Source of the DNA: Dehalococcoidia bacterium
GTDB taxonomy: Bacteria > Chloroflexota > Dehalococcoidia > GIF9 > UBA5629
NCBI GenBank assembly: GCA_041653995.1
Contig: JBAZEK010000001.1
Location: 1,030,613 to 1,094,612, forward strand
Direction: 5' to 3'
Length of the DNA stretch: 64,000 bases
Below are positions 10,051 to 57,880 of the stretch, in pieces (the first letter of the stretch is position 1; each line of letters begins with the position of its first letter). Both the position numbers and the translations under genes were made by a program. The notes beneath the pieces were generated by a model that did not search any database, was not told the DNA's origin, and worked only from the letters and a program-made list of their open reading frames with translations.

Positions 10051-10116
10051 CGCCGTACGGCGTAGTATCAGCTATGAACGTTGGATTTTAATCAAAAGTT
10101 AAGGAGGCTATTCGAA

Positions 10117-10596: not shown

Positions 10597-10606
10597 GGAG
10601 CATATT

Positions 10607-11059: not shown

Positions 11060-11504
11060 AATAGTCTATCTAAGGGGTATCTGCTTTCACATCGGCATTT
11101 TCGCCGGTATAGTGGCGCTAATACTTAGTATCTTCGGCATAGCGGCCGGCAGCACGTTGAACCTGGTGCTGAGCATACTGATGTGGATCGGCGCCGTTGC
11201 AGGCGTTACAGCAATAATATCACGCGCAACCGAAGCCAACCTGAGGGGGATCAGCCGCCCCGACGATTACATCTCGCCCGCGTTGATCACGCTCTTTATG
11301 TCCATGGGCGCGCTGCACGCCATGAACCTCGTCGATACCGTGTATTTTTATGCTGCCGCCAGCGTGCTGTGCCTTTACCTCCCCTGGAGCAAGGTCCGGC
11401 ACTGCGTTTACTTCTTCTTCATGCGCGGTAAGATCGGCGCGATGATGGGCCATCGAGGTCTGCTGGGCACGACGCAACGACAGACGAGGAAAGGAACACC
11501 ATGA
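10860..11504 (+). CDS. NarI/HdrE/DsrM-like polytopic membrane protein
   Basis: 214 aa with 5-6 TM helices. Position immediately before an HdrD/DsrK-like gene, with a 4-nt ATGA overlap at 11501. Confidence 0.5.
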   Translation: MIDLSLAVLLVSLAVALAGVAVWIYQLFSRPSACDPSPGKGSDKLGVLYAFTLGMLPWKKESAGLHKIVYLRGICFHIGIFAGIVALILSIFGIAAGSTLNLVLSILMWIGAVAGVTAIISRATEANLRGISRPDDYISPALITLFMSMGALHAMNLVDTVYFYAAASVLCLYLPWSKVRHCVYFFFMRGKIGAMMGHRGLLGTTQRQTRKGTP

Positions 11505-26886: not shown

Positions 26887-29545
<2,659 letters not shown>

Positions 29546-31038: not shown

Positions 31039-31275
31039 TTACATGATGTAGGGCGTGCGGCAGCATTTAAGTGCAACACGATGAGAACATATGGTGGGCG
31101 ATACTGGATTTGAACCAGTGACCCCCTGTGTGTAAGACAGGTAAAAACCTTTAATTGACTGGAGCTTATTGATAATCTCTAGGGAAGCCTTACGTTGTCC
31201 TGAAAGAATCATGCTCAAATAGCTTTTACTGATACCTAATTCTTTGGCTAATTGACTCTGTGTTAACTTTTTCAT
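31039..31275 (-). CDS. HTH protein = putative N-terminal fragment of the split integrase (Int-N)
   Basis: ATG 31275 abuts the xis-like stop. HTH 'LTQSQLAKELGISKSYLSMILSG'. Residues 49-61 are encoded by the att/tRNA copy and the last 17 aa by host flank. Confidence 0.6.
   Translation of the reverse strand: MKKLTQSQLAKELGISKSYLSMILSGQRKASLEIINKLQSIKGFYLSYTQGVTGSNPVSPTICSHRVALKCCRTPYIM
31092..31142. repeat. att site (distal copy): 3' 51 nt of tRNA-Val(UAC) without the 5' half
   Basis: 'tggtgggcgatactggatttgaaccagtgaccccctgtgtgtaagacaggt' is identical to 43144-43194. Confidence 0.95.
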
Positions 31276-31530
31276 TTATTTCACCCGCCTTTTTATATCC
31301 TTTAAGCCTGCGTTTCCAATTATCGGTAAATATTGGTACGACTTCTTCTGTCTTCCTTTTGCACTAAAGTTCCCCTGTGGTTTTCTCACAAAATGACAGT
31401 CTACCTCATCAATAAGCCATCTCCGTCCAATGTAGAGTGCATTAATCCGTCCCTCTGACAAAAGCTTACGAACCCGTCTCTCAGATATACCAAGCCTTTC
31501 TGCTGCCTGTGGAACCGTAAGTAGTTTCAT
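31276..31530 (-). CDS. excisionase-family DNA-binding protein (Xis-like)
   Basis: 'LLTVPQAAERLGISERRVRKLLSEGRINALYIGRRWLI' is the typical excisionase/MerR-type HTH_17 pattern. Confidence 0.7.
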   Translation of the reverse strand: MKLLTVPQAAERLGISERRVRKLLSEGRINALYIGRRWLIDEVDCHFVRKPQGNFSAKGRQKKSYQYLPIIGNAGLKDIKRRVK

Positions 31531-31817: not shown

Positions 31818-31841
31818 AATTTTTTGATTCGGAGGTACGAA

Positions 31842-32057
31842 ATGACTGAAAACAAGGTCAAGGAAATTAGATTGAGCAAATGCATGAATCAGAGAGAACT
31901 GGCAGAGAGAGCTCATATCTGTCAAACAGCTATTTCAGACATTGAAAGGGGGGTAAGACTACCATGGAAAGCAGCGTCTGAAAAGCTTGCTATTGCATTG
32001 GGTGTCACAATCGAGGAATTATTCCCAAACAATCTTAGGGGAGGTAAAAATTGCTAA
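31842..32057 (+). CDS. Cro/CI-type XRE HTH regulator
   Basis: ATG 31842 after GGAGG. 'MNQRELAERAHICQTAISDIERGVRLP'. Divergent from xis-int. Confidence 0.75.
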   Translation: MTENKVKEIRLSKCMNQRELAERAHICQTAISDIERGVRLPWKAASEKLAIALGVTIEELFPNNLRGGKNC

Positions 32058-32398
32058 ACAAAAATAGAACGTCTTTAAAGCTGGGAAACAAGAAAGTAGG
32101 CTACTTTGAAGGTGATAAATTCATCAAACCCGTAATCGGCTCAAAGCATCTGCTGAAATTTCCTTACCAAGCTTGGGCAATTGATGCCAAAGTATTTGAC
32201 GATGAAATTAAACCTAACGCCAATTATTTTATTGTAAGAGATAGGGAGTCGGGGCTTGAATATAGTTGTACGGTAAAGGACTTCGACAATTTAAAGCGAA
32301 CCATTAACAGAGGGTATGGTAAGCAGTACAGTCTATCTCTAAAACATTGGAAAATAGCAGCTATGGAAGACGCTGAAGCTTCCAGTAACGCAACATAG
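32051..32398 (+). CDS. hypothetical protein
   Basis: 115-aa ORF with TTG start after GGAGG, overlapping the cro-like stop by 7 nt. No recognisable motifs. Confidence 0.5.
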   Translation: MLNKNRTSLKLGNKKVGYFEGDKFIKPVIGSKHLLKFPYQAWAIDAKVFDDEIKPNANYFIVRDRESGLEYSCTVKDFDNLKRTINRGYGKQYSLSLKHWKIAAMEDAEASSNAT

Positions 32399-32579
32399 AG
32401 TAGTGCAGCACCCGTTTTAGTAGTTGGAGGTGCTGTGTAAAAATGGTATTAGACAGAAGGAAAAGGCTGATGGAGGAGGGTATGACTCGCCATGATATTT
32501 CAGGAGCCTACTTATTTAATCAATTCAAGTGAGTTGTAATAGATGGTCATACCTATTCGATGGTCTTAAGGAGGAAAAT

Positions 32580-33026
32580 ATGATTCAGGGCATAGAAAAT
32601 TATATAAATTTAACAGATACCAAGAATGAATGGGCAAAATTTCTAAATGGCTTTGAATGGCATTGGTTCTTTACTCTCACATTTGATAAAAAGGTAAGTG
32701 ATGACTTGGCATACAAGCAATTCTTTAGGTGGAAGAATTGGATAAAGAGTTCAGTAGGACACAGAATTTTCTATCTAATTATTCCTGAGCGTCCCAAGTA
32801 TAAGGGAGATAATACTCATATTCATGGATTTCTTAATGGTGTTGAAAATGAGAAACCCTACATATGGAGAAGGAAATGGGAGGCAATGGCAGGCTTTTCT
32901 CGGATTCAACCCTATGATAGTTCAAGGGGTGCAAGCTATTATCTAGCGGATAAAATTGTATTTAAAGAAGAGGATATTTATCATAGCAAAGACCTAAATA
33001 TGATAAAGATAAATACACTCAATTAA
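32580..33026 (+). CDS. HUH-superfamily rolling-circle replication initiator (Rep)-like protein
   Basis: ATG 32580 after AAGGAGG. Motif I 'FFTLTF', motif II 'THIHGFL' (HUH), motif III 'YYLADK'. Confidence 0.55.
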   Translation: MIQGIENYINLTDTKNEWAKFLNGFEWHWFFTLTFDKKVSDDLAYKQFFRWKNWIKSSVGHRIFYLIIPERPKYKGDNTHIHGFLNGVENEKPYIWRRKWEAMAGFSRIQPYDSSRGASYYLADKIVFKEEDIYHSKDLNMIKINTLN

Positions 33027-33117: not shown

Positions 33118-33172
33118 GCCCCAAATATGAATTAAATATAAATATCTACAATTAATTGCATAAAATTGGGGC
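33118..33172. other. hairpin (7-bp GC-rich stem, 41-nt AT-rich loop): candidate replication origin
   Basis: gccccaa (33118-24) pairs with ttggggc (33166-72). The loop holds 'taaatataaatatctacaa' (33133-51), which recurs at 34198-34216. Confidence 0.35.
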
Positions 33173-33231
33173 ATAGGGAAAAAATCACATATAAAATTCA
33201 AATAGAAAGTCAGGAGGAATCAGTAAGTAAA

Positions 33232-33858
33232 ATGAGTACAATAATTTCAAAACCTACGACAATTCAAATTAGCATGCTTGGGACACATGCCTTTTGTGAA
33301 TATAGGATATATCTTGAGCTTGTTATGGGTTTTAAAGCACGAGGTACACCAGAAATGCTTGAAGGCACAAAAGCACACTCAAGGATAAATACGATGGCTT
33401 TCTTAACGAGAGATTCAAATATTAGCATTGAGGATGCGTTGCTCCAAGCAGAGTCAGACGGAAGAGAAATAACAAAAAGGAACGTACGGGTAACAGGTAA
33501 GATACTACGTGGGAATATCGATGAAATTCACATTGGGCCAAAAGAAATTACGATTATAGATGATAAAAAATGGGCAGAGCATTATCCATCATATAAAAAT
33601 CAAGTCTTTGGCTATTGCCTTGCGTTTAAAGAACAATACAACCCAAAGCAGCCGATATACGGTGCCATAAAGAATTATCAGTCTGGAAAGGAAGTCTGGA
33701 AAAAACAATTTTCAGTTTTGGAAGAGGAATATATAAACGGCATTGTTCAAAGAATACTGGGGATAATTCGTGAGGATATCACTCCAAAACCCATTGGTGT
33801 TAGAGAAGTATGCTGGCAATGTGGATTTAAAAATTACTGCAATGTAAGGACACGATAG
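33232..33858 (+). CDS. Cas4-like PD-(D/E)XK nuclease with 4-Cys cluster
   Basis: N-terminal Cys 'HAFCEYRIYLE', 'IDEIH', 'IIDDKK', 'NQVFGY' (QxxxY), C-terminal 'CWQCGFKNYC' (C-x2-C-x5-C). AGGAGG upstream of ATG 33232. Confidence 0.6.
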   Translation: MSTIISKPTTIQISMLGTHAFCEYRIYLELVMGFKARGTPEMLEGTKAHSRINTMAFLTRDSNISIEDALLQAESDGREITKRNVRVTGKILRGNIDEIHIGPKEITIIDDKKWAEHYPSYKNQVFGYCLAFKEQYNPKQPIYGAIKNYQSGKEVWKKQFSVLEEEYINGIVQRILGIIREDITPKPIGVREVCWQCGFKNYCNVRTR

Positions 33859-34503: not shown

Positions 34504-34532
34504 TTGCATGCGTCCTTTTAATACGATAGAAT
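34504..34532 (+). promoter_or_regulatory. promoter TTGCAT-17 nt-TAGAAT (copy A)
   Basis: Both hexamers and the spacing are conserved in the duplicated unit at 40413-40441. Confidence 0.5.
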
Positions 34533-34558
34533 ACGGTCAATGTAGTGAGGCTGGGGAG

Positions 34559-36502
34559 ATGAAATATTTACTTGCTTGTTTCATAGCACTATTCGTTATA
34601 TCAGCCTGTGCATCTCAAGTCCATGTTGGTGACCAAGCTCCAAACTTCACACTGACAGATATAAATGGTAAACGTATTAGTCTGCAAGATTTTCGTGGCA
34701 AGCAGGTTGTTCTTTATCTTTGGTTTTTATATTGTCCTGAATGTACAGAAGACCTTGCTGAGATTCAAGAGTTGAATAATAATAGTGACGAAAGAGTCAT
34801 TAAGTTCCTAACCATTAACCCAGAAAATTCATCAAAAGACGTTGCGGATTTTTTCACTAAAAATGGATATAGTTTCCCAGTTTTGTTTGATTTAGATGGA
34901 AGTATTTACAAGCAATATAATTTACGACCTCGGTCTGCACCCTACACAATAATTATTGCTCCTGATGGAAAGATTAACAATATTACAGTGGGGAATCTTC
35001 ATTATCAAGGTGGTTTAAAACGGTTAATTGGAGATAACGTAACATCCTTCAGTCCAAGTGCACAAACTCAAAAGACTCCAATAATTATCGTACCCAGTTT
35101 ACAATCTCATGGTGTCGATGAACTTGCTTATGTATCTAGCGAAACGAACACGAACTCTATATATGTCGTGAATGCAAACGGGGAATATATTGCTAACTCA
35201 TCTGGAAAAATGGATGCATTATACCATGTTAGTTGGTCGCCAAACGGAGATAAGATTATTTTTGAAGTGGTTAAAGATATCAATATAGACCAGAGAAATA
35301 TGACCCTTATTTCTTCGTCTGATATTTATTCTCTTGATATTAAAGACCATGAAGAGCGTAGACTTACTTCAAATTATCCGTATAGCAATTGTTCTCCCAC
35401 ATGGATTGAAGACGATAAAATCGTATTTTATTCAACAAGGGGAAGTTCGTATGGCAGTTTTTTACAAAATATATACATCATGAACGCAGACGGAAGTAAT
35501 CAGATAAATTTAACTAATTGTGCAGAGAATGTACCTATGGTATTAGAACCAATATTATCGCCTGACCACTTGTCTGCAGCATATATTACGGGTAAGTTAT
35601 TCGATGAAGATATATATGTGATAAACCTAGTGAATGGAAATAAATTTGAAATAGGCCATAATCCAACATTTGCACCCTGGACTTGGTGGTCTCCAAACAG
35701 TAAACAGATAGCGTATATATCTGCCTCTCTAAACGGGGGGCCTGAATCATTTTATCTCTACGATGTCGAAAAACAGAAACCGATAAAATACTATGATAGC
35801 CCTCAATCTTATTCTATTATGGAAATAGCATGGTCGCCAGACAGTAACAAAGTCGCTATTTTTGAAAAACCGCAGAGCTTGTATGTTTTAGATTGTCTGA
35901 GTTCCAAGTTTACAAAACTTGATGGGATATGTGACTGGGTAGTAGAGATGAAATGGATACCTAATAACCAACAAATAGCCATTATTGGTGACAGGTTTAC
36001 AAACAGAAACTTGTATGTAATTGATATTGGTGAGCAGAGTAAGCATAAAATCAATCCAGAGGGAACGGCAGTCGAGTCGTATCGATGGTCAACTGATAAT
36101 ACAAGAATCATTTATTGCTTAGATGATGGATATCTTTACACAACTTTCCTACCCAACTTAAATACCATAAAACTAATGCAACTTAATAAAAATACGATAA
36201 AAGGGTTAGCTTTGTCACCAGACGGTTTATTAATCGCTGTTGCTCTGAGTGACGATACTCTAACTGTAATTTCATTAAACAATAACAAGGTGTGCTTGTT
36301 AACTAATGATTATTACAATATTGGAGCAATTTCTTGGTCGCAAAACAGTAACATACTTGCATTTGAATACGGAACTTTATGGGATAGTCCGTTTGTATGC
36401 AGTAACATTCAAATCATCAATTTCGAAAACGAGGAACAGTTCATTAAATTAGATAAACCAATCTCAGGACGCTCTCCAATTTGGGCGAGAAAGGAAAAAT
36501 AA
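34559..36502 (+). CDS. lipoprotein: TlpA/ResA-like thioredoxin domain (CPEC) fused to TolB-like beta-propeller
   Basis: Signal 'MKYLLACFIALFVISAC'. 'VGDQAPNFTLTDINGKRISLQDFRGKQVVLYLWFLYCPEC'. Then >=8 PD40-like blades ('SWSPNGDKIIFE', 'WWSPNSKQIAYIS', 'AWSPDSNKVAIF', 'ALSPDGLLIAVA'). Confidence 0.75.
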   Translation: MKYLLACFIALFVISACASQVHVGDQAPNFTLTDINGKRISLQDFRGKQVVLYLWFLYCPECTEDLAEIQELNNNSDERVIKFLTINPENSSKDVADFFTKNGYSFPVLFDLDGSIYKQYNLRPRSAPYTIIIAPDGKINNITVGNLHYQGGLKRLIGDNVTSFSPSAQTQKTPIIIVPSLQSHGVDELAYVSSETNTNSIYVVNANGEYIANSSGKMDALYHVSWSPNGDKIIFEVVKDINIDQRNMTLISSSDIYSLDIKDHEERRLTSNYPYSNCSPTWIEDDKIVFYSTRGSSYGSFLQNIYIMNADGSNQINLTNCAENVPMVLEPILSPDHLSAAYITGKLFDEDIYVINLVNGNKFEIGHNPTFAPWTWWSPNSKQIAYISASLNGGPESFYLYDVEKQKPIKYYDSPQSYSIMEIAWSPDSNKVAIFEKPQSLYVLDCLSSKFTKLDGICDWVVEMKWIPNNQQIAIIGDRFTNRNLYVIDIGEQSKHKINPEGTAVESYRWSTDNTRIIYCLDDGYLYTTFLPNLNTIKLMQLNKNTIKGLALSPDGLLIAVALSDDTLTVISLNNNKVCLLTNDYYNIGAISWSQNSNILAFEYGTLWDSPFVCSNIQIINFENEEQFIKLDKPISGRSPIWARKEK

Positions 36503-36527
36503 GAAATTTCAAAAATGGAGACTGAAT

Positions 36528-36824
36528 ATGACTGGCGAATTGGGAAATTTTGTTATCGTCATGGGATTACCCTGTTTAGGAGCGCTGTTAATAGCTTTTT
36601 GTTCATTACCAACCGATAAATGGACAATAAAACACACTTTTATGTTGGTGGGAACTTCACTAATTTTTATTAGCTTTATTTTGCAAGCATATCAGATTAT
36701 TGATAAATACCCTGATAAAAATGAATATATATTTGGATGGTGGATTGTCGGTTTAGCTACCGTTATCATGGCTATAATAGGGCAAATTATTAGAATCAGA
36801 TACGGTAAAAGTTGGTTCCAATAG
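36528..36824 (+). CDS. small membrane protein (3 TM)
   Basis: 98-aa hydrophobic ORF, 26 nt after the upstream stop. Confidence 0.5.
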   Translation: MTGELGNFVIVMGLPCLGALLIAFCSLPTDKWTIKHTFMLVGTSLIFISFILQAYQIIDKYPDKNEYIFGWWIVGLATVIMAIIGQIIRIRYGKSWFQ

Positions 36825-36920
36825 GATAATAAAATAGTGGGAAAGGAAAGAGAAGGAAATTTAATTAGCTATCTATATTTAAGATAAGAGTGACTTATAG
36901 AACTTCATTGAGGTTGGGAG

Positions 36921-37451
36921 ATGCAACAACAGTATCAATGCCCTAATTGTAGGTATCCAGTTGCTTATGGGAATAATTTCTGTGGACATTGTAGACAACA
37001 ACTAATCTGGCAACAATTAATGCCACCTTCACCACCAGTACACCATCAGCAAACACCACAAGGCATTATTGGGAAATCACACGAGCAAAACACTTCTGGA
37101 CAAGGTGGTCAATCAATAATACCCGATGAAAAGCGTATTAAACTTCCAAAACTCAATATTCGTTTCGACTTTGAGTTGTTTCAAGCAATTGAGGACAATG
37201 ACCGTAAACTGGCTGAACAGCTCAAAGCAAAATATGGGGATGATGTTTATAATTCCAATTTTTATAACCTGCTTAGTATCGAAGACGCTAACTCAGTAGA
37301 CTCACTTCATCTTAAACTAGTATCAGTTGAAAAAATGAATTTCAATGATATTTTATGCGAAAGTATCAAAATAGAGACTGAAAAAGTACGCAAAAGGATA
37401 GAGGAGCTTGAGAATATAAAAAATTTACGCAACGGGATTGAGGAAGTGTAA
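36921..37451 (+). CDS. zinc-ribbon protein with Pro-rich linker and helical C-terminus
   Basis: 'MQQQYQCPNCRYPVAYGNNFCGHCRQQLIW'. Head is homologous to the host ORFs at 57880(-) and 58107(+). No TM helix. Confidence 0.65.
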   Translation: MQQQYQCPNCRYPVAYGNNFCGHCRQQLIWQQLMPPSPPVHHQQTPQGIIGKSHEQNTSGQGGQSIIPDEKRIKLPKLNIRFDFELFQAIEDNDRKLAEQLKAKYGDDVYNSNFYNLLSIEDANSVDSLHLKLVSVEKMNFNDILCESIKIETEKVRKRIEELENIKNLRNGIEEV

Positions 37452-37511
37452 GGAACTGACTAAACCCCTGAAACTGGCAGCTCGAGTAAGAAAAATGGCG
37501 GGAAAGAAAAT

Positions 37512-39368
37512 TTGATTTATATGTTATGGGATGATACGTATCGTAAAGATGCAGCGGAGTATGAAATCTATCTGCGTATGCATCATAAAGAAAAAAACGA
37601 TTACGAGAAGCTTTTATCTAATCTTGAACGTGAGTGGTCAGAAAAATCAGTTAAAGAAGAAAACTACATATCGCTTAAAAAGGAATACACAGCGAAACTA
37701 CAGGAAACAAAGAAGTACATTTCAAAGCTGAAATTCCAGATTACAGCACTCATTAAAAAATGTAATAAAGACATAGATAAAATCGATAGCCAAATTGAAC
37801 AAATTAAATTGCGGCACAAAGTTGGTGAATATTCAGAGGAGAAACTCAAAGAACTATTATCACCATCTGAAACAGAAAGAAGGCAATTTGAATCCTTAAT
37901 AATCGAACTGAAACGCATACATGGCTTGAAATATATACCTAAACCAACTACCGATGATGTTGTATCAGAAACAGAACCGAGTCAGCCTAGAAGGTCTCCT
38001 ATCCCAACGTCATCTACTTCTATTTCAACAGCTGAAGAGCAAGCCCCCGAAATATCAGCACCAATGAGTTTTGAAGAACCGCCTCCTATTTTGGTACCTG
38101 CTGTATTTAAAAAGTCTTCACCTGTAAGAGTAAAGAAGAGTCTGTGGATTATGGCTTCGATTACTATGTTTGTAATATTAATTCTCTGTTTTGTTATTTG
38201 GAATATAGAAGTGCATAAAAAGGTAATCCCTCAGATTGGAGACCAAGCTCCAAACTTCTCTCTCCCAGATATGAATGGTAAAACGGTTAACCTTCAGGAC
38301 TTTCACGGAAAGGGTGTTGTTCTTTACCTTTGGGACACATCATGTCCTTACTGCAAAAATGACCTTAGCTGGATAAATGAATTAAATGGCTGCACCTATG
38401 ACGAAGCAATAATATTTTTAACTATTAATATCTCAGATTCACGTGGAACAGCTATTAAATATTTTGAGGAAAATGGATATAGTATTCCCGTTTTAAATGA
38501 TATGCGTGGGACGGTTATTAAGCAGTATGTAAAGTACACCTTAGGCCATACGTATCCAGATACTATTCTTATTGGTTCAAATGGCCAGATTCGTAATGTA
38601 AAAGTCGGGCCCTTCCAAAGCAAGACTGAATTAAAAACATTTATAGAATCAGGTTTAACCCCCCGTTGGGATAATACTCCTCCACAAATTTATGATATTA
38701 ATCTTTCTAAGGCCTCTATTTTGAGTTGGAAAACGGATGAGGAAACACATAGTAATATACAAGGGTTTCGTAATAGTGTCGGAGGTGCTGGAGTCACTCT
38801 TGGTGAAAATTGGACAAGATATCATAGCGTAAATGAAACAGTTTGCACTAATGGCTACTATGACCAAATTCAAATCAACTCGTATGACCGCTGCGGTAAT
38901 TCTGCTTCAAAAGTTTTTACACTGCCCAACTGCATAAATTTAGGTTGTAGAGCTCCTGATTTCACAGCAACTTCAACTAATAATCAGGATATAACGCTGT
39001 CCGCAGTACCTAGCAAAATGACTCTACTTCACTTCTGGCTACTCGGATGTGGTGCATGTGAAAAGGAACTTCCATTAATCCAAAAACTATATTATGAGCG
39101 TCCTAGAGAAGAACTTGAGATATTGGCTGTGAATGTTAGAGGTGACATATACAGCATAAATGACTTCGTTACTGCAAATGGTTATAGATTAATTATTTTA
39201 CTAGATACAGAAGGCATAATAGATGCCGCCTATCATAATCCAAGGTTCCCCACAACCTTTTTATTGGATTGCAATAAGGTAATTATTAACAAGCATGACG
39301 GTGCCTTTCAAAATTATGAAGAAATCGTTGATTTTGTAGGTCAGTATCCAAAACTTCCTGGTAAATAG
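37512..39368 (+). CDS. coiled-coil / TM / thioredoxin (CPYC) / Fn3-like / thioredoxin (CGAC) protein
   Basis: 618 aa. TM 'LWIMASITMFVILILCFVIW'. 'IGDQAPNFSLPDMNGKTVNLQDFHGKGVVLYLWDTSCPYC', 'ILSWKTDEETHS', 'CRAPDFTATS...LLHFWLLGCGAC'. Start uncertain (TTG 37512, ATG 37521, or frameshifted ATG 37495). Confidence 0.7.
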   Translation: MIYMLWDDTYRKDAAEYEIYLRMHHKEKNDYEKLLSNLEREWSEKSVKEENYISLKKEYTAKLQETKKYISKLKFQITALIKKCNKDIDKIDSQIEQIKLRHKVGEYSEEKLKELLSPSETERRQFESLIIELKRIHGLKYIPKPTTDDVVSETEPSQPRRSPIPTSSTSISTAEEQAPEISAPMSFEEPPPILVPAVFKKSSPVRVKKSLWIMASITMFVILILCFVIWNIEVHKKVIPQIGDQAPNFSLPDMNGKTVNLQDFHGKGVVLYLWDTSCPYCKNDLSWINELNGCTYDEAIIFLTINISDSRGTAIKYFEENGYSIPVLNDMRGTVIKQYVKYTLGHTYPDTILIGSNGQIRNVKVGPFQSKTELKTFIESGLTPRWDNTPPQIYDINLSKASILSWKTDEETHSNIQGFRNSVGGAGVTLGENWTRYHSVNETVCTNGYYDQIQINSYDRCGNSASKVFTLPNCINLGCRAPDFTATSTNNQDITLSAVPSKMTLLHFWLLGCGACEKELPLIQKLYYERPREELEILAVNVRGDIYSINDFVTANGYRLIILLDTEGIIDAAYHNPRFPTTFLLDCNKVIINKHDGAFQNYEEIVDFVGQYPKLPGK

Positions 39369-39441
39369 ATAATTTCTTGATATTAAGAAATCGAGGTGTA
39401 CTGGTCTGAACCCCTGAAACTGGACAGCTTGAGTAAGAAAA

Positions 39442-39951
39442 ATGGCGGAAAAAGAAATGCAACAGGAGGAGCATCCCCTAAATATGGGGAAGCTACTTGT
39501 GAATTTCCAATCACTTGAGATAGCTCTCCGTCTATTTCTTTATAATGATGAAATTGCCTCTAGAGTTTCATCTCCTCAGGCGGTAAACCTAAATGCTATG
39601 AATGCGGGGGATATAGTAGCTGAAAATGCGTTCACAAACTATGATAGTCTAAGTCAACTCATTGATAAATATAATAACCATCCCAACATCATATCGACAG
39701 GTCTAACCATTGATAAGACTTTAGTGGACATACGTGATGCAATAGCTCATGGAAGAGTCGCTGGAGTCACTCCTTTGCTTGTGCCTCCTTTAAAACTAAT
39801 GAAGTTTGATAAACCAAAGAACAAAAGTGTGAAAGTAACATTTAGCGTTTTATTGACAAGGGAATGGTTCATTCTAGAGATGGCTAAGGTTCAAGATGCA
39901 GTTTTTAAAGTCTTTCAAGCTATCCAAATAATACAGAGTGCTAAGACATAA
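39442..39951 (+). CDS. hypothetical protein with RxxxxH (HEPN-like) motif
   Basis: 169 aa, predicted helical. 'VDIRDAIAHGRV' matches the Rx4-6H HEPN signature. Motif-level evidence only. Confidence 0.45.
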   Translation: MAEKEMQQEEHPLNMGKLLVNFQSLEIALRLFLYNDEIASRVSSPQAVNLNAMNAGDIVAENAFTNYDSLSQLIDKYNNHPNIISTGLTIDKTLVDIRDAIAHGRVAGVTPLLVPPLKLMKFDKPKNKSVKVTFSVLLTREWFILEMAKVQDAVFKVFQAIQIIQSAKT

Positions 39952-40412
39952 GTGGTGCCCTCTGAAATCGCTCTGAGGGGCTGAAATCAGGGTGTTGCAT
40001 ATTGAACATGACGGATTCCACCTGTCATTACTATTCCAGCTTAATTAGAGCCTTTAAAGTATTAAACAGTAAAGGTAATAACTCTACTTCCTTTCCCTTA
40101 AGCCCCTTTATTATTTCTTCGCCTAAGTTTCCGTTCAAGTGAATTATGTCGCTTTTAAGACCAACAAACGCTGGTACACCATAAACACGTTTACGTTCAA
40201 GCCAATTATGTCGTTTTGCATATATTATTTCCAGCTTAAATTAACTACAGAAAAATGGGGCAAAAAGAGAAAAAGGGGAATTATATATCAATTTATTGTC
40301 AATAATCTTTGAAATACTATTACTTCATCTGAGAGAGATGCCAGCAGCTAAGTGTAACGGCATTGAATTTTAAATAACTTCTCAGCCCAAAGTGGTAACG
40401 CATATAGGTCTA

Positions 40413-40441
40413 TTGCATAAGTATTGTTCATATAATAGAAT
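40413..40441 (+). promoter_or_regulatory. promoter TTGCAT-17 nt-TAGAAT (copy B)
   Basis: Same hexamers and spacing as 34504-34532. Followed by an identical 5' UTR and signal-peptide coding sequence. Confidence 0.5.
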
Positions 40442-40467
40442 ACGGTCAATGTAGTGAGGCTGGGGAG

Positions 40468-41880
40468 ATGAAATATTTACTTGCTTGTTTCATAGCACTA
40501 TTCGTTATATCAGCCTGCACACCAAATAACTCAATAAACAACGTTGAGACATTCCCAAAAATCGGAGATAAGATACCGAATATCTCATGGACTACTATCA
40601 ATGGCGAAAAGATTGATTTAAATCAGTTTAAAGGCAGTTGGGTGCTACTATGCTATTGGTGCTCTTGCCCTGTACATAGGAATGACATACTGACTATTCA
40701 TAATGTTTATGATTCATTATATGATAAGAATCTCGATGTCATTGTAATTAATGATACTTATGCTCAGATAGAATTAGAGGCATTTGGAAAACAAAACAAT
40801 GTACCGTTTTATTTAATTGAAGATAATCAAAAAACAATTGATAAACTTGTACCATTTGGCAACAGGCCAATATATCTCTTAATTGATGGGAGTGGGGATT
40901 TACATGCTATCGAAATAGGTACATTTCGCTCTGGCGAAAATAGCGTTAACAATGTAATCAATTTCCTTGATGATGTGATTAAGGTAAGAATCGATAATAT
41001 TACAGTCACTAATATTACTTCAAATAGGGCAACTGTGAGATGGAAAACAGATAAGGCAGTACCGTGTTGGTTGGAAATTCACCCCCAAGGTGACCCAATC
41101 GGAAAGTGCATCGGCAAGACAAATCCAAATACATTTCATGAATTGATATTAAACTGTAATCCCAACACAGCTTACACTTTTAACGTAGCTGCTAGTGGAT
41201 TAGATAATTCTTTAATTAACGATGCAAGCAATCGTAGTAGTGAATTTTCATTTCAAACATTACCAAATTGGGTTACTTCTTTATATGAGGTTGACTCTAC
41301 TAAACCAAAAATATCGAATGTTAAAGTTTCTATAATTACAGATACGAGTGCAGAGTTATATTGGGAAACTGATGTGGAAGCTCAAGTCACCGCTACAATC
41401 TGTAAATATATATCCAGTACTGATGCGCCCTTAAACTCCCAGAAAATTGATTTTATAGAAGACATATATTTTACAAAGAAACATAGCTTTACAATTAGCT
41501 CTCTTGAGCCAAGACGATTATATGACGTTGGTTTAAATGCCAAAGATAGAATGGGAAGGGTTGCCGATTACAGTGTCGAATTTTTAACACAACCTTCAAA
41601 TTATACTCACGGAGCGAAGATATCCAATATATCTTTATATGACATCACGGACAGGAGTGCTAAATTAAAATGGTCAACTGACAAGTCAGTATGGAGTTCA
41701 GCCTGCTATAAATATGAGTGCTCTTCTGGGGACATCAACACTGAGCATTCATATACACTATCCTATGGTCTGGAACCCGATACAGAATACTGGGTGCAAA
41801 TTCTAGCACATGGGGAATCGGTATCTGATGTATTCAACTTCAGAACATTAAAGACAACAGATAAGGTAGATATGAAATGA
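40468..41880 (+). CDS. lipoprotein: degenerate thioredoxin-like domain (WCSCP) plus three Fn3-like domains
   Basis: Identical signal 'MKYLLACFIALFVISAC'. 'IGDKIPNISWTTINGEKIDLNQFKGSWVLLCYWCSCP'. Fn3-like starts 'ITSNRATVRWKTDK', 'ITDTSAELYWETDV', 'ITDRSAKLKWSTDK'. Confidence 0.7.
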   Translation: MKYLLACFIALFVISACTPNNSINNVETFPKIGDKIPNISWTTINGEKIDLNQFKGSWVLLCYWCSCPVHRNDILTIHNVYDSLYDKNLDVIVINDTYAQIELEAFGKQNNVPFYLIEDNQKTIDKLVPFGNRPIYLLIDGSGDLHAIEIGTFRSGENSVNNVINFLDDVIKVRIDNITVTNITSNRATVRWKTDKAVPCWLEIHPQGDPIGKCIGKTNPNTFHELILNCNPNTAYTFNVAASGLDNSLINDASNRSSEFSFQTLPNWVTSLYEVDSTKPKISNVKVSIITDTSAELYWETDVEAQVTATICKYISSTDAPLNSQKIDFIEDIYFTKKHSFTISSLEPRRLYDVGLNAKDRMGRVADYSVEFLTQPSNYTHGAKISNISLYDITDRSAKLKWSTDKSVWSSACYKYECSSGDINTEHSYTLSYGLEPDTEYWVQILAHGESVSDVFNFRTLKTTDKVDMK

Positions 41881-41907
41881 AAGAAAATCAAAAGGGAGGT
41901 AAAGAAG

Positions 41908-42084
41908 ATGGTAGCAAATAAGAAGAAGTATTATGCAGGGGAATCAGCTAAAGTCTCTGGCAAATACAACGAATGCAGATTGGGCACAGGCAAAACAGGA
42001 GTAACAGCAAATGTCAAGAAGGGGGATACACTCCCACCACATAAAATAGGAGCTCATTGGGAGTTATCAAGAAAATCTAAATAA
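41908..42084 (+). CDS. small YjzC-like protein (58 aa)
   Basis: Not in the track (<60 aa). AAGGGAGG lies 8 nt upstream. 'GESAKVSGKYNE...VKKGDTLPPHKIGAHWEL' resembles the YjzC family pattern (from memory). Confidence 0.5.
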   Translation: MVANKKKYYAGESAKVSGKYNECRLGTGKTGVTANVKKGDTLPPHKIGAHWELSRKSK

Positions 42085-42316
42085 TATAGACATATTTAAG
42101 AAAGTGGTGACTTATAAAACTTCATGCTGTCCTGAAAGCTGAATGACCGAGTATATCTTTGCACCATAATAAAGTTCAGCCAAGGCACCGTTAAAATGTA
42201 CTACAGAATTGTTCTAAAGGGCCAAAATGGGGTATATAATATAGGGCATGACAGATTCTTCCTGCCTGAGCTTTTCAAGCTTAATTATTGAACAAATAAC
42301 TATGAAATCCTGATTG

Positions 42317-43081
42317 CTAACGAGGTAACTGATTTGAGCCGTTCACATCTTTGTAGACTTGAAGAGCATCCTCAAAGGATAAAGATTTTGAATACCTTTC
42401 AACCATAGAAATGCTTTCCCAACCGCCTAGATTTTGCACAATACGAGTGGATAACCCAGACTTAATATTGTGAATACAAAACCCTCTTCTATAGCTATGG
42501 GCGTTGGACTTAATGCCAGTTTCTTTAGACAATCGTTTAAGCATAGTTTTAATGCCAGCTCTTGATATTTCAAAACTATCATGCTCATCAAACCACTTTC
42601 CGATAACACCATTACCAGCTAAAGCCTTACGATACTTGTTACCCTTGCCCAGAATGGTTACTGTACCTTCACCCCAGTCAAAGTCTTTAGCGTGCACATT
42701 AGCACATTCACTCAGCCTTACTCCTGAGTACCATAAGAAACTAATTAATGCTCTATCACGTTCACAATGACAATGATTTATCAGAACTTCTAATTGTTCT
42801 TTTGATACCGCAGGCAATAGCTTCTTTTGAATTTTTGGGCTAGGAACTTTGTCAATAACCTTGTCGTGAATATAGCTATTGCTGTATAGCCATGAAATGA
42901 GAGTTTTGAGAGCTTGATAGAATCTTGCTTTGCCATTATGACAGGTAAGTGATTTTAGATAAGCATTAACTCCATCTGGACTTAGGGGATAACCAATAAA
43001 ATGAGTTAAAGTATATTCGTAAAATTCAATAGTTCGCTTACTACAACCATCGGGGCGAGAAGAAATAAACTTCTCCAACAA
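42317..43081 (-). CDS. tyrosine recombinase, C-terminal part of split integrase (Int-C)
   Basis: Catalytic residues in 'GVRLSE' (R), 'HSYRRGF' (HxxR) and 'MVERY' (Y). No ATG or SD (track start is TTG) and first Met codon is at residue 180. The frame stays open upstream through attR. Confidence 0.85.
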   Translation of the reverse strand: MLEKFISSRPDGCSKRTIEFYEYTLTHFIGYPLSPDGVNAYLKSLTCHNGKARFYQALKTLISWLYSNSYIHDKVIDKVPSPKIQKKLLPAVSKEQLEVLINHCHCERDRALISFLWYSGVRLSECANVHAKDFDWGEGTVTILGKGNKYRKALAGNGVIGKWFDEHDSFEISRAGIKTMLKRLSKETGIKSNAHSYRRGFCIHNIKSGLSTRIVQNLGGWESISMVERYSKSLSFEDALQVYKDVNGSNQLPR

Positions 43082-43143: not shown

Positions 43144-43219
43144 TGGTGGGCGATACTGGATTTGAACCAGTGACCCCCTGTGTGTAAGACAGGTGCTCTA
43201 ACCGCTGAGCTAATCGCCC
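43144..43219 (-). tRNA. tRNA-Val (anticodon UAC), CCA encoded; integration target
   Basis: GGGCGATTAGCTCAGCGGTTAGAGCACCTGTCTTACACACAGGGGGTCACTGGTTCAAATCCAGTATCGCCCACCA. Anticodon loop CTTACAC. The 3' 51 nt form attR. Confidence 0.9.
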
Positions 43220-44586: not shown

Positions 44587-45612
44587 ATGCAGCAATGGAT
44601 AAGATGCACCAGATGCGGCGCCAATAATGCTCCCGGACAGAAATTCTGTAACGCATGCGGTACACCCCTGCCGACCGTCTGCCCCAATTGCGGAACCCCG
44701 GCAGGTCCCGGCAGCACTTTCTGCGCCAGGTGCGGCATGACATTCAGCGGTATGCCCCAGCAGACCGGATATTACCCTCCGCAGCAGCCGGGATATCCTC
44801 AGCAACCTGGCTATCCGCAGCAACCGGCATATCCGCAACAGCCGGGCTATCCTCAGCAACCGGGCTATCCTCAGCAACCGGGCTATCCGCAACAGCCGGG
44901 ATACCCGCAACAGCCTGGATATCCGCAGCAGCCCCCCGGCTACCCGCCTCAACAGACCGGCTATTATCCTCCGCAGCAGCCGGGTTATCCTCCACAGCCG
45001 GGATATCCGCAGCAACCGCCCGGTTATCCGCCGCAGCCGGGATATCCGCAACAGCCCGGCTATCCCCAGCAACCGGGATATCCGCCGGGCTATCCTCCGC
45101 AGCAGCCGCCACGCGGAGCGTATCCGCCGGGCGCAAGGCCACCCCAGCAAGGCGGCGGCAAAGGCATGCTCATATTGCTGCTGGTTGTTCTGATTGCCGG
45201 CCTGGCAGGCTTCGGTTACTGGGCTTACAGCCAGGGCTACCTCAAGGGCATACTTAACTTCGGCAGCGATAACACCACCACCTCCACAGGGAAACAGAAG
45301 GACACTGTGCCGCCCACCATCAGCGGCGTAGAAGTTAGCGCCAAGGCCATAAACGAAGTCGGCATTATCTGGAAGACGGACAAGCCATCCAGTTCTCAGG
45401 TGGAATGGGGTCCCAAGGGATCGTTCGGCAACAAGACGACACTACAGGATGACCCCGTGAGCGGTACCAGCATCGGTGTCACCGATCACGGGGTTATCGT
45501 CAAGGGATTAACGGCAAATACTGAATACCAGTACCGTGTGTTATCACATACCGACGGCAACGTTGACGCCGTATCCGCCACCAATACTTTCACGACACCT
45601 TCGGCAGATTAA
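44587..45612 (+). CDS. double zinc-ribbon / PGYPQQ-repeat / TM / Fn3-like domain protein
   Basis: '[19 protein letters not shown]...[19 protein letters not shown]', 132-aa Pro/Gln/Tyr repeat, TM '[21 protein letters not shown]', and C-terminal '[16 protein letters not shown]...TEYQYRV'. Confidence 0.8.
44755..45150. repeat. 18-nt tandem repeat (P-G-Y-P-Q-Q) coding region
   Basis: About 20 degenerate copies of 'ccgggctatcctcagcaa'. This generates the long spurious ORFs in other frames and on the other strand. Confidence 0.9.
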
Positions 45613-45644: not shown

Positions 45645-46529
45645 ATGTATCAATCAACAGTACCCTGCCCTAAATGCGGCGCGCAGAACCTGCGGGGACA
45701 GTGGGTATGCGCGTACTGCGGAAATACGCTTGTCGTTTATTGTCCATCCTGCCATACCGGCAACGCCATCGACAGCCAGTATTGCCACGCCTGCCATGCA
45801 GTTCTCGCGTATACCGGCGTTCCGCCGGCTCAACCACAGTATCAACCCCAACCCCAGCAGCCTCAACCATATCCGCAGTACCCGCAATATCCTCCCGGGC
45901 AAACTGACCAGGGCCAGTACCCTCCGCAGTATCCACCCTACCCTCCACCCGGTTATCCACCACAGCAACCACCCTACCCGGACTACCAGGCCGGATACGG
46001 CCAGCCCGGCGATTATAAACCATACTCGGTTCACGGCGGCGAAGCCTACGCCGGAGGCGGGCTGGACGGCCTGATCGACAGGCTCAAAGAGTTCGTGCGC
46101 AATACCAATCCCATTCTCCTCTCTTCGCTGGTGGTGCTGGTAGTCGGTCTGACCATCTTCCTCATCCTGGCCTTCCAGTTCGGCTGGATCAAGACGGGTT
46201 CGGCGCCCAAAGTAGAAACAGTTAAAGATACCACAGCTCCTGTGATAACTTATTTAACTTATGAGCCCGGTGAAAATAGAAGCATTATAATAATTTGGGC
46301 AACCAATGAGCCAGCAAGTACGCGGGTCGAGTGGGGTATCGCACCTGTTTTCAACCAATTCACACTTATAGAAAACGATCCCCAAGTTGGCCAAGGTACA
46401 CTTTCACATAGGGTAACATTGACTAACCTGCTACCAAACACCAGCTATATTTACCGCGCAATATCATATGACAAAGCAGGGAACAAATGCATGAGTCCTA
46501 CTATGCCATTCCAAACTACGAACTACTAG
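45645..46529 (+). CDS. double zinc-ribbon / PQ-rich / TM / Fn3-like domain protein (paralogous architecture)
   Basis: 'CPKCGAQNLRGQWVCAYCG...CPSCHTGNAIDSQYCHACH', PQY-rich linker, TM 'ILLSSLVVLVVGLTIFLILAF', and 'IIIWATNEPASTRVEWG...TSYIYRA'. Confidence 0.8.
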   Translation: MYQSTVPCPKCGAQNLRGQWVCAYCGNTLVVYCPSCHTGNAIDSQYCHACHAVLAYTGVPPAQPQYQPQPQQPQPYPQYPQYPPGQTDQGQYPPQYPPYPPPGYPPQQPPYPDYQAGYGQPGDYKPYSVHGGEAYAGGGLDGLIDRLKEFVRNTNPILLSSLVVLVVGLTIFLILAFQFGWIKTGSAPKVETVKDTTAPVITYLTYEPGENRSIIIIWATNEPASTRVEWGIAPVFNQFTLIENDPQVGQGTLSHRVTLTNLLPNTSYIYRAISYDKAGNKCMSPTMPFQTTNY

Positions 46530-56281: not shown

Positions 56282-57880
56282 TCACGGGGTTACGCTCACG
56301 GTGACCGTGGCGTTATCAGTCCCGTAGCTGTTGATGGCGGTCAAGGTAAAGCTGGTGGTTTCAGCCGGCGATACAGCCTGCGTGTATTTCGAGGCTGGAA
56401 CGCCGATGCCCTGGTCAATAATGTATAAAGTAGCGCCATTCACATTCCAGGAAAGGTTGGATGTCCCGCCCTGAGAAATGCCGGTAGGCGTGGCCGTGAA
56501 AGATCTTATTATCGGCGCAGTGCCGTCGGTTAAAACGCCTACCGCAACCGTGACTTCCTTCTTTACGGAGCCGAACGTGTTGACCGCGGTCAGCTCATAA
56601 GTGGTGGAAGCGGTCGGTATCACCTTCGTCCAGCCGGAAGACGGTACGCTGCCGACATTCGGGCTGATAGAGACTGTCCTGGCCGCATCGACCGTCCAAT
56701 TGAGTGTCACCTCCTCCCCCAGCATGATCGAATTGTTGCTTACGGAGAAGGTTTTAATCCGGGGCGGGTCTTTGGTCAGCGCCGGACCGGTGCTCAGGCT
56801 GGAAGCATCCACGCTGATAGTGACCGTCCTGGTTACCGAGCCGTAGTCGCTGTCGGCCCTCAATGTATATACTGCGGTCTCGGAGGGCGTTATTCTGACC
56901 GTACCCTTTAAGGCCACGCCGCCGATGCCCGGACTGATATTAATCGATTTCGCGCCGATGATATCCCATGCCAGCGTCGCTTCGTCGCCGGCTTTAATCG
57001 AGGACGGGCTGGCGCTGAAGATCGTGATGATGGGCGTCTTGGATGTGCTTACCTCCAGCGCGGCTGAAGCGGTTGTATTGCCGTTGATATTGGCCGCCGT
57101 CAGCACATAGCGGGTGGTCGCTCCCGGGGAAACGACTTTCGATCCGGTCGAAGATACGGTTCCCACCTCCGGCTGGATGGAAACCGATGTTGCGCCGGAG
57201 ACGTTCCAGGATAAAGTGGACGTCTGCCCCACATAGATACCGCCAGGGCTGGCAACAAAGCTGTTGACCGTCGGCGGCTTGCCGGTGACCTCAACGGTTA
57301 TCTCCCTGCTCACAGAGCCGCCGAAACGGCTATCGGCGGTCAGCTTATAGGTAGTGGTTTCATCCGGCGACATTTTCTTTGTTCCGCTGAAAGACACCGT
57401 CCCTATGCCGGGGCTGATGGAGACGGCGGTTGCCTCGCCGACATCCCACTGTAAAGTCACCTCCTGGCCGGATATAATCGTAGATGAACTGGCCTCGAAA
57501 GCTGTAATAACCGGCGGCGCAAACAGTTTTTCAATATCTCCCTTCAAAGCAACGCCCGTGACGATAAGCGCTGTAACAACAAGCAAGGCAGAGGCTATAG
57601 CAATAGTCTTTGTCCGGTTATCTTTTATCCGCTGCAGCAGTTTCGATACGACGCTATTATTCGGCGGTTGTTCCTGTCCCTGCGAATCCTGACCCGCCCA
57701 TTGATTACCTTCCTGCGACTGATACCATTGCTGCTGCTGATCATGCCGGGAATCGTATGACTGGGACTGGCCCTGCGTCTGGGATCCCTGCCAGTTGAGG
57801 ACGGTTTTGCAGTATGAGCACTGCGCCTGTCCGTAGACGACAGGTGTGTTGCAGTAGGGGCAGTAATACATTTGCTGCAT
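56282..57880 (-). CDS. zinc-ribbon / Gln-rich / TM / 5x Ig-like repeat surface protein
   Basis: 'MQQMYYCPYCNTPVVYGQAQCSYCKTVLNW', TM 'IAIASALLVVTALIVTGVAL', and five ~80-aa repeats with core 'TLSWNVSGATSVSI.P..G.V...G...V.P..TT.Y.LTA'. Confidence 0.85.
   Translation of the reverse strand: MQQMYYCPYCNTPVVYGQAQCSYCKTVLNWQGSQTQGQSQSYDSRHDQQQQWYQSQEGNQWAGQDSQGQEQPPNNSVVSKLLQRIKDNRTKTIAIASALLVVTALIVTGVALKGDIEKLFAPPVITAFEASSSTIISGQEVTLQWDVGEATAVSISPGIGTVSFSGTKKMSPDETTTYKLTADSRFGGSVSREITVEVTGKPPTVNSFVASPGGIYVGQTSTLSWNVSGATSVSIQPEVGTVSSTGSKVVSPGATTRYVLTAANINGNTTASAALEVSTSKTPIITIFSASPSSIKAGDEATLAWDIIGAKSINISPGIGGVALKGTVRITPSETAVYTLRADSDYGSVTRTVTISVDASSLSTGPALTKDPPRIKTFSVSNNSIMLGEEVTLNWTVDAARTVSISPNVGSVPSSGWTKVIPTASTTYELTAVNTFGSVKKEVTVAVGVLTDGTAPIIRSFTATPTGISQGGTSNLSWNVNGATLYIIDQGIGVPASKYTQAVSPAETTSFTLTAINSYGTDNATVTVSVTP
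56285..57517. repeat. five tandem ~240-nt coding repeats (Ig-like domain)
   Basis: Periodic protein motif as described for the CDS. Confidence 0.8.

Follow-up and report, generated by a model that had tools for sequence, protein, structure and literature searches.

What might a small mobile element gain from carrying several thioredoxin-fold proteins that are predicted to be exported? The question is raised by positions 34504-42084 of a 64,000-nucleotide stretch of a Dehalococcoidia chromosome (hereafter, the window), in which an earlier note, made from the DNA sequence without database searches, had placed seven co-oriented cargo genes, here named g1 to g7. All seven open reading frames (ORFs) are present in this region and share one orientation, and the region makes up the cargo half of an integrative element, 12.05 kb long, that occupies the 3′ end of a tRNA-Val(TAC) gene. 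Three of the encoded proteins, g1, g4, and g6, carry four thioredoxin (Trx)-fold modules. On balance, we lean toward reading the cargo as an element-borne set of surface ResA/TlpA-type thiol-disulfide reductases or isomerases, whose scaffold domains would hold the client proteins. Each of the rival explanations considered below is less supported than this reading.

Three predicted surface proteins carry ResA-like modules

The domains predicted in g1, g4, and g6 lie far beyond chance, with AhpC-TSA and Redoxin matches in Pfam ranging from 1e-12 to 1e-38 across g1, the two stretches of g4, and g6. According to Pfam, NCBIfam, and its signal peptide, g1 (34559..36502, + strand; ORF from 34508) encodes a lipoprotein in which a ResA-like Trx domain (AhpC-TSA 9.6e-25, Redoxin 8e-19, CPEC at residue 59) precedes a PD40/TolB-type beta-propeller. 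The propeller is of the PD40/WD40 type and matched the TolB-propeller model TIGR02800 at 1.8e-30, under the cut-off. This architecture agrees with that first described, but the start then placed at 34508 is more likely to be at 34559 (MKYLLACFIALFVISAC, lipobox ISAC), which is also the NCBI call (MFA5399816.1, 647 aa). The g4 gene (37512..39368, + strand) encodes a type II membrane protein, as judged from Pfam, NCBIfam, profile comparison, and hydropathy, with a cytoplasmic coiled coil, a single transmembrane (TM) segment (residues 211-229), and two Trx modules (two Redoxin stretches, 3.8e-38) with CPYC at residue 278 and CGAC at residue 513. The predicted order of its parts stands as proposed, the middle domain being recognized as fibronectin type III (Fn3) by a profile-profile match only, to the Fn3 of g6 (hhalign 74%, E 2.8e-5).

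The third protein, g6 (40468..41880, + strand), is a lipoprotein characterized by Pfam, an AlphaFold2 (AF2) model, and a family alignment. In the AF2 model (predicted local distance difference test score, 78), a ResA-like Trx fold (4nmu, TMt 0.81) is followed by three Fn3 domains, which is consistent with fn3/Pur_ac_phosph_N matches in Pfam; a fold search of BFVD with this model returned generic tandem-Fn3 matches only. The earlier description of a noncanonical Trx domain with three Fn3 domains was thus upheld, and its motif could be refined. When g6 is aligned with ResA, Cys67 falls at the first active-site cysteine and His70 at the second, with further cysteines at -5 and -2, and the active-site motif is therefore CPVH. 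In sum, the four modules on three proteins display the motifs CPEC, CPYC, CGAC, and the noncanonical C-x2-C-x-CPVH.

ResA is the best NCBIfam model for all three proteins. A profile of the type formed by g1 and the N-terminal module of g4 (g1/g4-N type) matched Bacillus subtilis ResA first (1e-26) and then Streptococcus pneumoniae Etrx (2yp6, 4hqz), and within this type the CxxC motif and the cis-Pro are invariant in six of six sequences (C43, C46, and P114 of the alignment). The N-terminal strand that had been noticed as common to the modules, GD.AP(N/D)F...NG, does align with GSDAPNFVLEDTNGK of B. subtilis ResA. All three proteins are predicted to face outward, since g1 and g6 have lipoprotein signal peptides and the Trx modules of g4 are C-terminal to its single TM segment, with basic residues before it. 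These features fit the proposal of exported ResA/TlpA-type modules and place g1, g4, and g6, by prediction, on the outer face of the cytoplasmic membrane, where a lipid or a single TM helix would anchor them.

The cargo belongs to an integrative element in tRNA-Val(TAC)

The GC content of the element is 0.34 to 0.38 (approximately 35%) between about 31.0 and 43.2 kb of the window, compared to 0.51 to 0.58 (approximately 55%) in the flanks. Identical direct repeats of 51 nucleotides (nt), at 31092-31142 and 43144-43194, duplicate the 3′ end of tRNA-Val(TAC). The left attachment (att) repeat (31092..31142, no strand assigned) is a copy of the 3′ part of the tRNA with a degenerate-tRNA score of 32 bits, and the right one is formed by the 3′ 51 nt of the tRNA-Val(TAC) gene (43144..43219, - strand; ARAGORN, Rfam 74 bits). 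A tyrosine integrase gene lies 62 nt from this tRNA. The region thus has the features of a tRNA-integrating island, i.e., an integrase beside a tRNA, an att duplication of the tRNA 3′ end, and a deviant GC content, and the suggestion that the seven genes are cargo of a mobile element was borne out. The island sits on a 1.28-Mb contig of a metagenome-assembled genome (MAG) annotated as Dehalococcoidia by NCBI and occurs with 99.86% identity, at the same site, in a second assembly from another sample. Searches with the flanking CNNM gene and a 618-aa form of g4 recovered neither an empty site nor an independent copy of the island; they returned occupied sites of the same strain or contigs that break at the island edges.

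Four tRNA genes are tightly clustered on the - strand (43144-43470), the target being the first: Val(TAC), Arg(GCG), Leu(CAG), and Val(CAC). Of these, tRNA-Val(CAC) shares 82% identity with tRNA-Val(TAC) over the att region and could be a secondary integration target.

Related proteins recombine Trx modules with propeller and Fn3 scaffolds

Relatives were found on about eight Chloroflexota contigs, always in DNA of 35 to 42% GC, on which paralogous Trx lipoproteins are either joined to propeller and Fn3 modules or encoded beside them. The g1 Trx domain shares 58 to 63% identity with the lipoproteins P0010 to P0012, in which the same signal peptide is followed by a Trx domain (CPEC or CLEC) and then by the Fn3-like domain of g4. 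The g4 protein itself is related to P0002 (35% identity) and to a 580-aa protein of locus L010 (37%); in P0002, the order is coiled coil, TM, Trx (CPYC), Trx (SCHF), Fn3, Cys-free Trx-like module, Fn3, and C-terminal domain. Eleven relatives of g6 share 34 to 56% identity with it, and P0139 fuses a g6-type Trx domain, with QSYPDH at the motif position, to a PD40 propeller. Within the g6 family, the N-terminal half of the Trx domain, which holds the active site, averages 75% pairwise identity, compared to 45 to 51% for the Fn3 domains, and C65, C67, and H70 are retained in approximately 10 of 12 sequences.

The gene arrangements differ from locus to locus. In L001, an islet of 7 kb within a chromosome of 58% GC, the P0002 gene precedes one for an NHL-propeller lipoprotein, and L008/L013 is a 3-kb islet located after CoaE and a tRNA-Asn in a 50%-GC Chloroflexia MAG. 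L016, in which CoaE is followed by a low-GC stretch with a related Trx-Fn3 lipoprotein, may represent the same site as L008/L013. Neither integrase nor att repeats were found on searching the L001 and L008 islets, which look like fixed remnants. L010 combines a g6-like gene, a g4-like gene, and a third Trx lipoprotein; L011 has three tandem g6-like genes and a PD40 propeller protein; L012 has a g6-like gene, another Trx protein, and a TPR-NHL-PD40 protein. The pairing of Trx modules with scaffolds recurs independently, by fusion in g1 and P0139 and by adjacency in L001 (NHL), L011 (PD40), and L012 (TPR-NHL-PD40), as expected of functional coupling.

No homologue of g2, g3, g5, or g7 was detected in any related locus, and for this reason the seven genes, which the earlier note had taken together as one system, do not constitute a conserved one. 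The unit that does recur is smaller: surface modules of the ResA type together with propeller or Fn3 scaffolds, in one chain or in neighboring genes, often as several paralogues. A scan of metagenomes at JGI with patterns of the g1/g4-N type returned mostly generic TlpA proteins and three close loci only (L016 to L018).

Some further features of the related loci were observed. L010 is AT-rich throughout the 12.7 kb obtained and, for that reason, may come from a lineage in which the family is native. The last approximately 170 residues of P0002 (L001, 9893-13168) and a separate 233-aa TM protein (L010, 4833-5534) have in common a domain without Pfam match, whose Cys/His/Asp pattern is, by eye, reminiscent of transglutaminase or papain-like folds. 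In addition, two independent contigs (L010, 11517-12736, and that of P0011) have a gene for an FHA-domain ATP-binding cassette transporter (approximately 800 aa) next to Trx-lipoprotein genes.

A proposed surface thiol-disulfide function and its rivals

In the reading that we favor, the CPEC, CPYC, and CGAC modules, with their cis-Pro, would act on exposed proteins as dithiol reductases or isomerases. The propeller and Fn3 domains would keep a client beside the active site, as proposed by analogy with NHLRC2 and SOQ1, and the two sites of g4 could work like the two catalytic domains of protein disulfide isomerase (PDI). Reducing power would be supplied by a host transporter of the CcdA/DsbD type encoded off the element. 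With CPVH and two extra cysteines, the g6 module might be a monothiol or metal-binding variant. The likely benefit would be the repair or maintenance of the redox state of cysteine, and perhaps methionine, at the cell surface, in parallel to the pneumococcal Etrx lipoproteins. Dehalococcoidia are reported to be devoid of a peptidoglycan wall. The HEPN-superfamily protein g5 would be an unrelated toxin, defense, or addiction gene that rides in the same operon. A wider generalization, which we put forward as doubtful, is that AT-rich mobile cassettes carry swappable ResA, propeller, Fn3, and further Trx modules, placed behind a common cassette of 5′ untranslated region and signal peptide, among Chloroflexota as a horizontally moved extracellular thiol/methionine repair-isomerase system, with a new C-x2-C-x-CPxH class of active or metal site and no dependence on a linked CcdA.

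Several results weigh against a reductase or isomerase set. The ResA model NF002854 has a cut-off of 170 bits, and all three proteins score below it (g1, 89.5; g4, 161.7 with the two modules summed; g6, 53). A canonical CxxC is absent from g6, in which a histidine replaces the second active-site cysteine. Conservation of the CxxC motifs among homologues, which had been proposed as a check, holds for the g1/g4-N type together with the cis-Pro but not for modules 2 and 3 of P0002 or for P0139; relatives include modules without any cysteine, and part of the Trx family may be noncatalytic because several of these modules have lost the motif. As the earlier note had remarked, no cytochrome c maturation (ccm/res) or CcdA linkage is seen: CcdA/DsbD, ccm/res, and Msr genes were found neither among the 40 scanned host ORFs of the window nor in the approximately eight related loci and their flanks. 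The family is also rare, a pattern scan with g6-family patterns over the genome contigs of 185,579 species representatives having given one true relative, and because of this rarity any generalization is drawn from about eight short contigs. Finally, the role in oxidative repair would follow from analogy alone.

The best surviving rival, although an unlikely one, is that the Trx folds serve mainly as binding modules or pseudo-enzymes and that the proteins are adhesins or receptors made of Trx-fold, Fn3, and propeller units that capture ligands. The canonical motif has been lost repeatedly (CPVH in g6, SCHF and one Cys-free module in P0002, QSYPDH in P0139), and the extensive domain shuffling behind a shared signal-peptide cassette is as expected of variable surface-protein families. 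Against adhesion, the g1/g4-N type has kept CxxC and cis-Pro without exception, and the active-site half, with its near-constant C65, C67, and H70, is the most conserved part of the g6 family.

We consider it rather more improbable that the set serves exclusion or defense, in which case the element would remodel host surface disulfides or attack virions to block competitors, with the HEPN protein as an intracellular back-up. Exclusion was the main hypothesis of the earlier note, which had redox-dependent ligand capture as its alternative. The location of the genes on a mobile element, the HEPN-superfamily gene inside the same unit, and the predicted surface exposure of the proteins would all suit this role. 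However, none of the findings speaks for exclusion: PADLOC gave no significant match for any of the seven cargo proteins, with no match at all for g2, g3, g5, g6, and g7 and marginal, partial ones for g1 (best E, 0.0012) and g4 (0.037); the sole significant match was the Cas4-like nuclease, which lies outside the cargo. Moreover, the relatives of the Trx genes number one to three per islet, and these islets lack integrase, defense, and HEPN genes, the HEPN family is independent and widespread, and the tandem arrays of paralogues resemble a cell-surface gene family.

A role in metal handling, i.e., Sco/TlpA-like copper delivery or maturation of metallo- or heme proteins with C-x2-C-x-C-x2-H of g6 as the metal site, appears highly unlikely. 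Weak SCO1-SenC matches (g1, 1.8e-7; P0002 and P0010, 1.3e-5) and the near invariance of three cysteines and one histidine in the g6 family favor it, yet the best matches are ResA and StoA rather than Sco, the CxxxC...H signature of Sco is not present, and no cox, ccm, or copper genes were found nearby in any locus. An integrated pleomorphic or plasmid-like virus, with the cargo as membrane or envelope proteins exchanging thiols and disulfides during entry, can be considered most unlikely of all: the integrase, Rep-like, and Cas4-like genes on a co-oriented 12-kb genome and the predicted membrane anchoring of all large proteins are compatible with it, but no capsid, packaging, or morphogenesis ATPase was recognized, the pairing of an ORF2/G2P-type Rep with structural or morphogenesis genes expected of an inovirus- or plectrovirus-type provirus was not found, searches of IMG/VR, phages, and plasmids were empty and that of BFVD gave generic Fn3 only, and the relatives are single genes in nonviral islets.

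Backbone genes of the element

The left edge of the element is occupied by a gene for an XRE-type helix-turn-helix (HTH) protein (31039..31275, - strand; Pfam HTH_3 1.2e-10), the 3′ end of which runs through the att repeat. From residue 45 onward, its approximately 34 final codons are located in the att repeat and the host flank, and the first 17 of these match tRNA-Val, making the C-terminal residues tRNA derived. Because the ORF reads through the repeat, the C terminus of the protein would change on integration or excision. It is followed by genes for an excisionase-like HTH_17 protein (31276..31530, - strand; Pfam HTH_17 2.8e-10), a second XRE-type HTH regulator (31824..32057, + strand; Pfam HTH_3 5.9e-10), and a 115-aa protein (32051..32398, + strand) that had no family match in any library. 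Two further genes precede the cargo. One encodes a rolling-circle Rep-like protein with an HIH motif (32529..33026, + strand), which matched Pfam REP_ORF2-G2P (PF23343) at 3.5e-6 and 27.6 bits versus a cut-off of 27.8; the other encodes a Cas4-like PD-(D/E)XK nuclease with a C-terminal Cys cluster (33166..33858, + strand; Pfam Cas_Cas4 4e-7, PADLOC Cas4 9.6e-15, TIGR00372 1e-13 and under cut-off). The tyrosine integrase gene (42317..43081, - strand; Pfam Phage_integrase 3.3e-21) is closest to the XerA type (NF040815, 1.5e-31, under cut-off). Between g7 and this gene, a 24-codon fragment (42111-42182, - strand) resembles the C terminus of the island integrase (46% identity, E 7e-4) and may be the remnant of an earlier integrase copy.

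Scans of IMG/VR with g4, the Rep-like protein, the Cas4-like nuclease, and the integrase found nothing, nor did tblastn searches of phages and plasmids with Rep and of phages with g6. A PHROG search matched solely two families of unknown function, and neither Pfam nor PHROG revealed an ATPase or a coat, capsid, packaging, or morphogenesis protein in the element.

Organization of the cargo and its repeated 5′ cassettes

Spacing between genes is 25 to 96 nt inside g1-g5, 516 nt before g6, and 27 nt from g6 to g7. The first and sixth genes begin with the same 85 nt (34524..34608 and 40433..40517, both + strand), a cassette that comprises the ribosome-binding site, start codon, signal peptide, and lipobox Cys of g1 and that reappears at the start of the g6-g7 unit. 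Similarity between the two copies extends about 150 nt further upstream, and the mature proteins are approximately 30% identical. We infer two transcription units, g1-g5 and g6-g7, each opened by this 85-nt cassette of 5′ untranslated region (5′UTR) and signal peptide.

A motif, TTTTAAATAA..TC.AGCCCAAAGT, lies upstream of the identical cassette in both places (34459-34523 and 40367-40432) and also precedes Trx-lipoprotein genes in L011 (2438-2505) and L016 (3887-3917). It has no match in Rfam and may be a common promoter or regulatory site. Alignment and repeat families further revealed an element of approximately 52 nt ahead of g4 (37460..37511, + strand) that is repeated ahead of g5 (39406-39458). 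It reads CTGAACCCCTGAAACTGG.CAGCTYGAGTAAGAAAAATGGCGG, and its ATG is the start codon of g5; before g4, the same ATG opens a mini-ORF of six codons ending at the g4 start. An Rfam scan of the island returned tRNAs only, so that the repeated 5′ cassettes correspond to no RNA family known there. The noncoding g5-g6 spacer of 516 nt contains a 29-nt direct repeat (40127-40155 and 40189-40217, 86% identity), and a GC-rich hairpin lies 3′ of g5 at approximately 39958-39981. In the L001 islet, the Trx gene (9893-9908) and the next gene, for the NHL-propeller protein (13186-13201), begin with identical 16 nt, ATGAAGGGAGGCAGAA, a common gene start that echoes the shared 5′ cassettes of the window.

The remaining cargo genes

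The g2 gene (36528..36824, + strand) encodes a 98-aa protein with three hydrophobic segments, as expected from the three TM segments first proposed; hydropathy is the basis of this description, as no significant family match was found. We considered whether g2 might be half of a CcdA, given an LPC in its first TM segment, and rejected this candidate, as there is no DsbD/CcdA signal in Pfam, no PCxxP, and no conservation in the related loci.

From its motif and hydropathy, g3 (36921..37451, + strand) is a candidate cytoplasmic zinc-ribbon protein with a Q/P-rich linker and a helical tail. The paired cysteine motifs (CPNC-x10-CGHC) and the absence of a TM segment agree with the earlier assignment, although zinc-ribbon matches in Pfam are weak (E of approximately 1e-3). 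The zinc ribbon of g3 is 47 to 50% identical, over 30 aa, to the N termini of host proteins with a zinc ribbon, a TM segment, and immunoglobulin (Ig)-like domains. In P0003 and P0004, a zinc ribbon is fused to TM-Fn3-Trx, and on account of these Rosetta-stone-type fusions g3 is probably a split-off cytoplasmic zinc-ribbon partner of g4. At least four host proteins in the window have an N-terminal zinc ribbon, a P/Q-rich linker (PQQPGY-type), one TM segment, and an ectodomain of Fn3 (Pur_ac_phosph_N-type) or Ig-like domains. Their genes are at 44587..45612 (+), 45645..46529 (+), 56282..57880 (-), and 58107..60068 (+), and two of them are immediate neighbors of the island. On the chromosome, this architecture corresponds to the arrangement formed by g3 plus g4.

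The fifth gene, g5 (39442..39951, + strand), encodes a candidate HEPN-superfamily protein according to its motif and family alignment. The RxxxxH motif that had been pointed out was confirmed, as R98 and H103 are invariant in 39 sequences, inside RDAxAHGR, which conforms to the Rx4-6H pattern. Members of the family are stand-alone proteins of approximately 160 aa, independent and widespread, with 722 cluster representatives at E≤1e-3. None of the curated HEPN models scored above its cut-off; HEPN_RiboL-PSP came nearest (9.8e-4, in 6 of 39 members), with an E value of 0.078 for g5 itself. The last gene, g7 (41908..42084, + strand), encodes a 58-aa protein that matched phrog_3202 at 7e-6; its suggested likeness to YjzC is weak and under the Pfam cut-off (E 0.011, 16.5 bits versus 25).

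A host catalase-peroxidase gene (27302..29545, + strand; KatG-type, Pfam peroxidase 3.3e-75) is located 1.5 kb from the island, from which we gather that the host meets or handles peroxide-type oxidants. Farther away, a host cluster at 10081..12790 (+ strand) encodes a DsrE-like protein, TusA, a four-TM protein, and a heterodisulfide-reductase-like protein of the Fer4/CCG type, a set that suggests thiol redox metabolism or a sulfur relay.

Comparison with known systems

Each single part of the element is of a known kind, i.e., a tRNA island, ResA-like lipoproteins, a Trx-propeller fusion, multi-Trx chains, and a HEPN protein. The earlier statement that no described system combines such parts needs narrowing, in that Trx with a propeller is known from NHLRC2/SOQ1 and surface Trx lipoproteins are known from Etrx1/2. 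In the literature searched, which held nothing specific on Trx-Fn3 proteins or Dehalococcoidia islands, four features appear undescribed: the modular ResA-Fn3/ResA-PD40 family with its shared 5′ cassette, the confinement of this family to AT-rich Chloroflexota islets, the conserved C-x2-C-x-CPxH variant, and the small backbone of XerA-like integrase, Rep-like gene, and Cas4-like nuclease. If the favored reading is true, extracellular protein-thiol maintenance would be an accessory, horizontally traded trait in an abundant, barely cultivated bacterial class. The family is in addition a clear case of module shuffling behind a conserved 5′UTR/signal-peptide cassette. If the proposed function is wrong, the locus still provides a small Dehalococcoidia integrative element with clear boundaries, for which the current virus and plasmid collections searched contain no relatives.

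The element resembles other tRNA-targeting integrative elements in its integrase beside a tRNA, its att over the tRNA 3′ end, its Xis-like gene, and its deviant composition, whereas its combination of XerA-like integrase, Rep-like, and Cas4-like proteins is without close relative in the phage, plasmid, and IMG/VR collections searched. Compared to HEPN toxins (HEPN/MNT, RiboL-PSP, Swt1-like), g5 appears to have an inserted three-stranded sheet, reaches the cut-off of no Pfam HEPN model, and lacks an adjacent MNT or other antitoxin gene.

With ResA, TlpA, StoA, and CcmG (DsbE-type), the cargo modules have in common the fold, the N-terminal GD.APNF strand, W...CxxC, the cis-Pro, and extracytoplasmic anchoring, and B. 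subtilis ResA is the best solved match (1e-26). In contrast to these proteins, they show no linkage to pathways for cytochrome c, Sco, or the spore cortex; they are carried by a mobile element as fusions with propeller or Fn3 domains, twice per chain in g4, and the three proteins score below the ResA model cut-off, with CPVH in g6. S. pneumoniae Etrx1 and Etrx2 are lipid-anchored, surface-exposed TlpA-like reductases (PMC3914529), and their structures (2yp6, 4hqz) are among the top sequence matches. Etrx proteins, however, are chromosomal, single-domain, and encoded beside ccdA and msrAB2, whereas the cargo proteins are multidomain and have no CcdA or Msr partner in the window. As in PDI and DsbC-type isomerases, two catalytic-type CxxC modules occur in one chain in g4, and P0002 mixes one catalytic-type module with two Cys-poor Trx modules in a manner similar to the a and b domains of PDI; unlike theirs, the modules of g4 are ResA-type and Fn3-separated, in a protein that is membrane anchored with a cytoplasmic coiled coil.

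The closest likeness in architecture to g1 is with NHLRC2 and SOQ1, which combine a TlpA-like Trx domain and a beta-propeller in one chain. In NHLRC2, conserved residues line the cleft that lies between propeller and Trx domain, and prokaryotic homologues of this architecture include Chloroflexi (PMC6107167). SOQ1 is membrane anchored on the extracytoplasmic (lumenal) side, where its Trx domain feeds a methionine-sulfoxide-reducing C-terminal domain (bioRxiv 10.1101/2024.11.01.621559). The g1 propeller, in contrast, matches PD40/WD40/TolB models and not NHL, its motif is CPEC instead of CC(I/V)NC (PMC6107167), and it lacks a SOQ1-type C-terminal domain; the likeness is one of architecture. True NHL propellers neighbor Trx genes in L001 and L012 only. 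Should the proposed function hold, the Trx-plus-propeller logic of NHLRC2 and SOQ1, whose clients are poorly defined, would extend to simple bacterial lipoproteins that could be used for substrate trapping.

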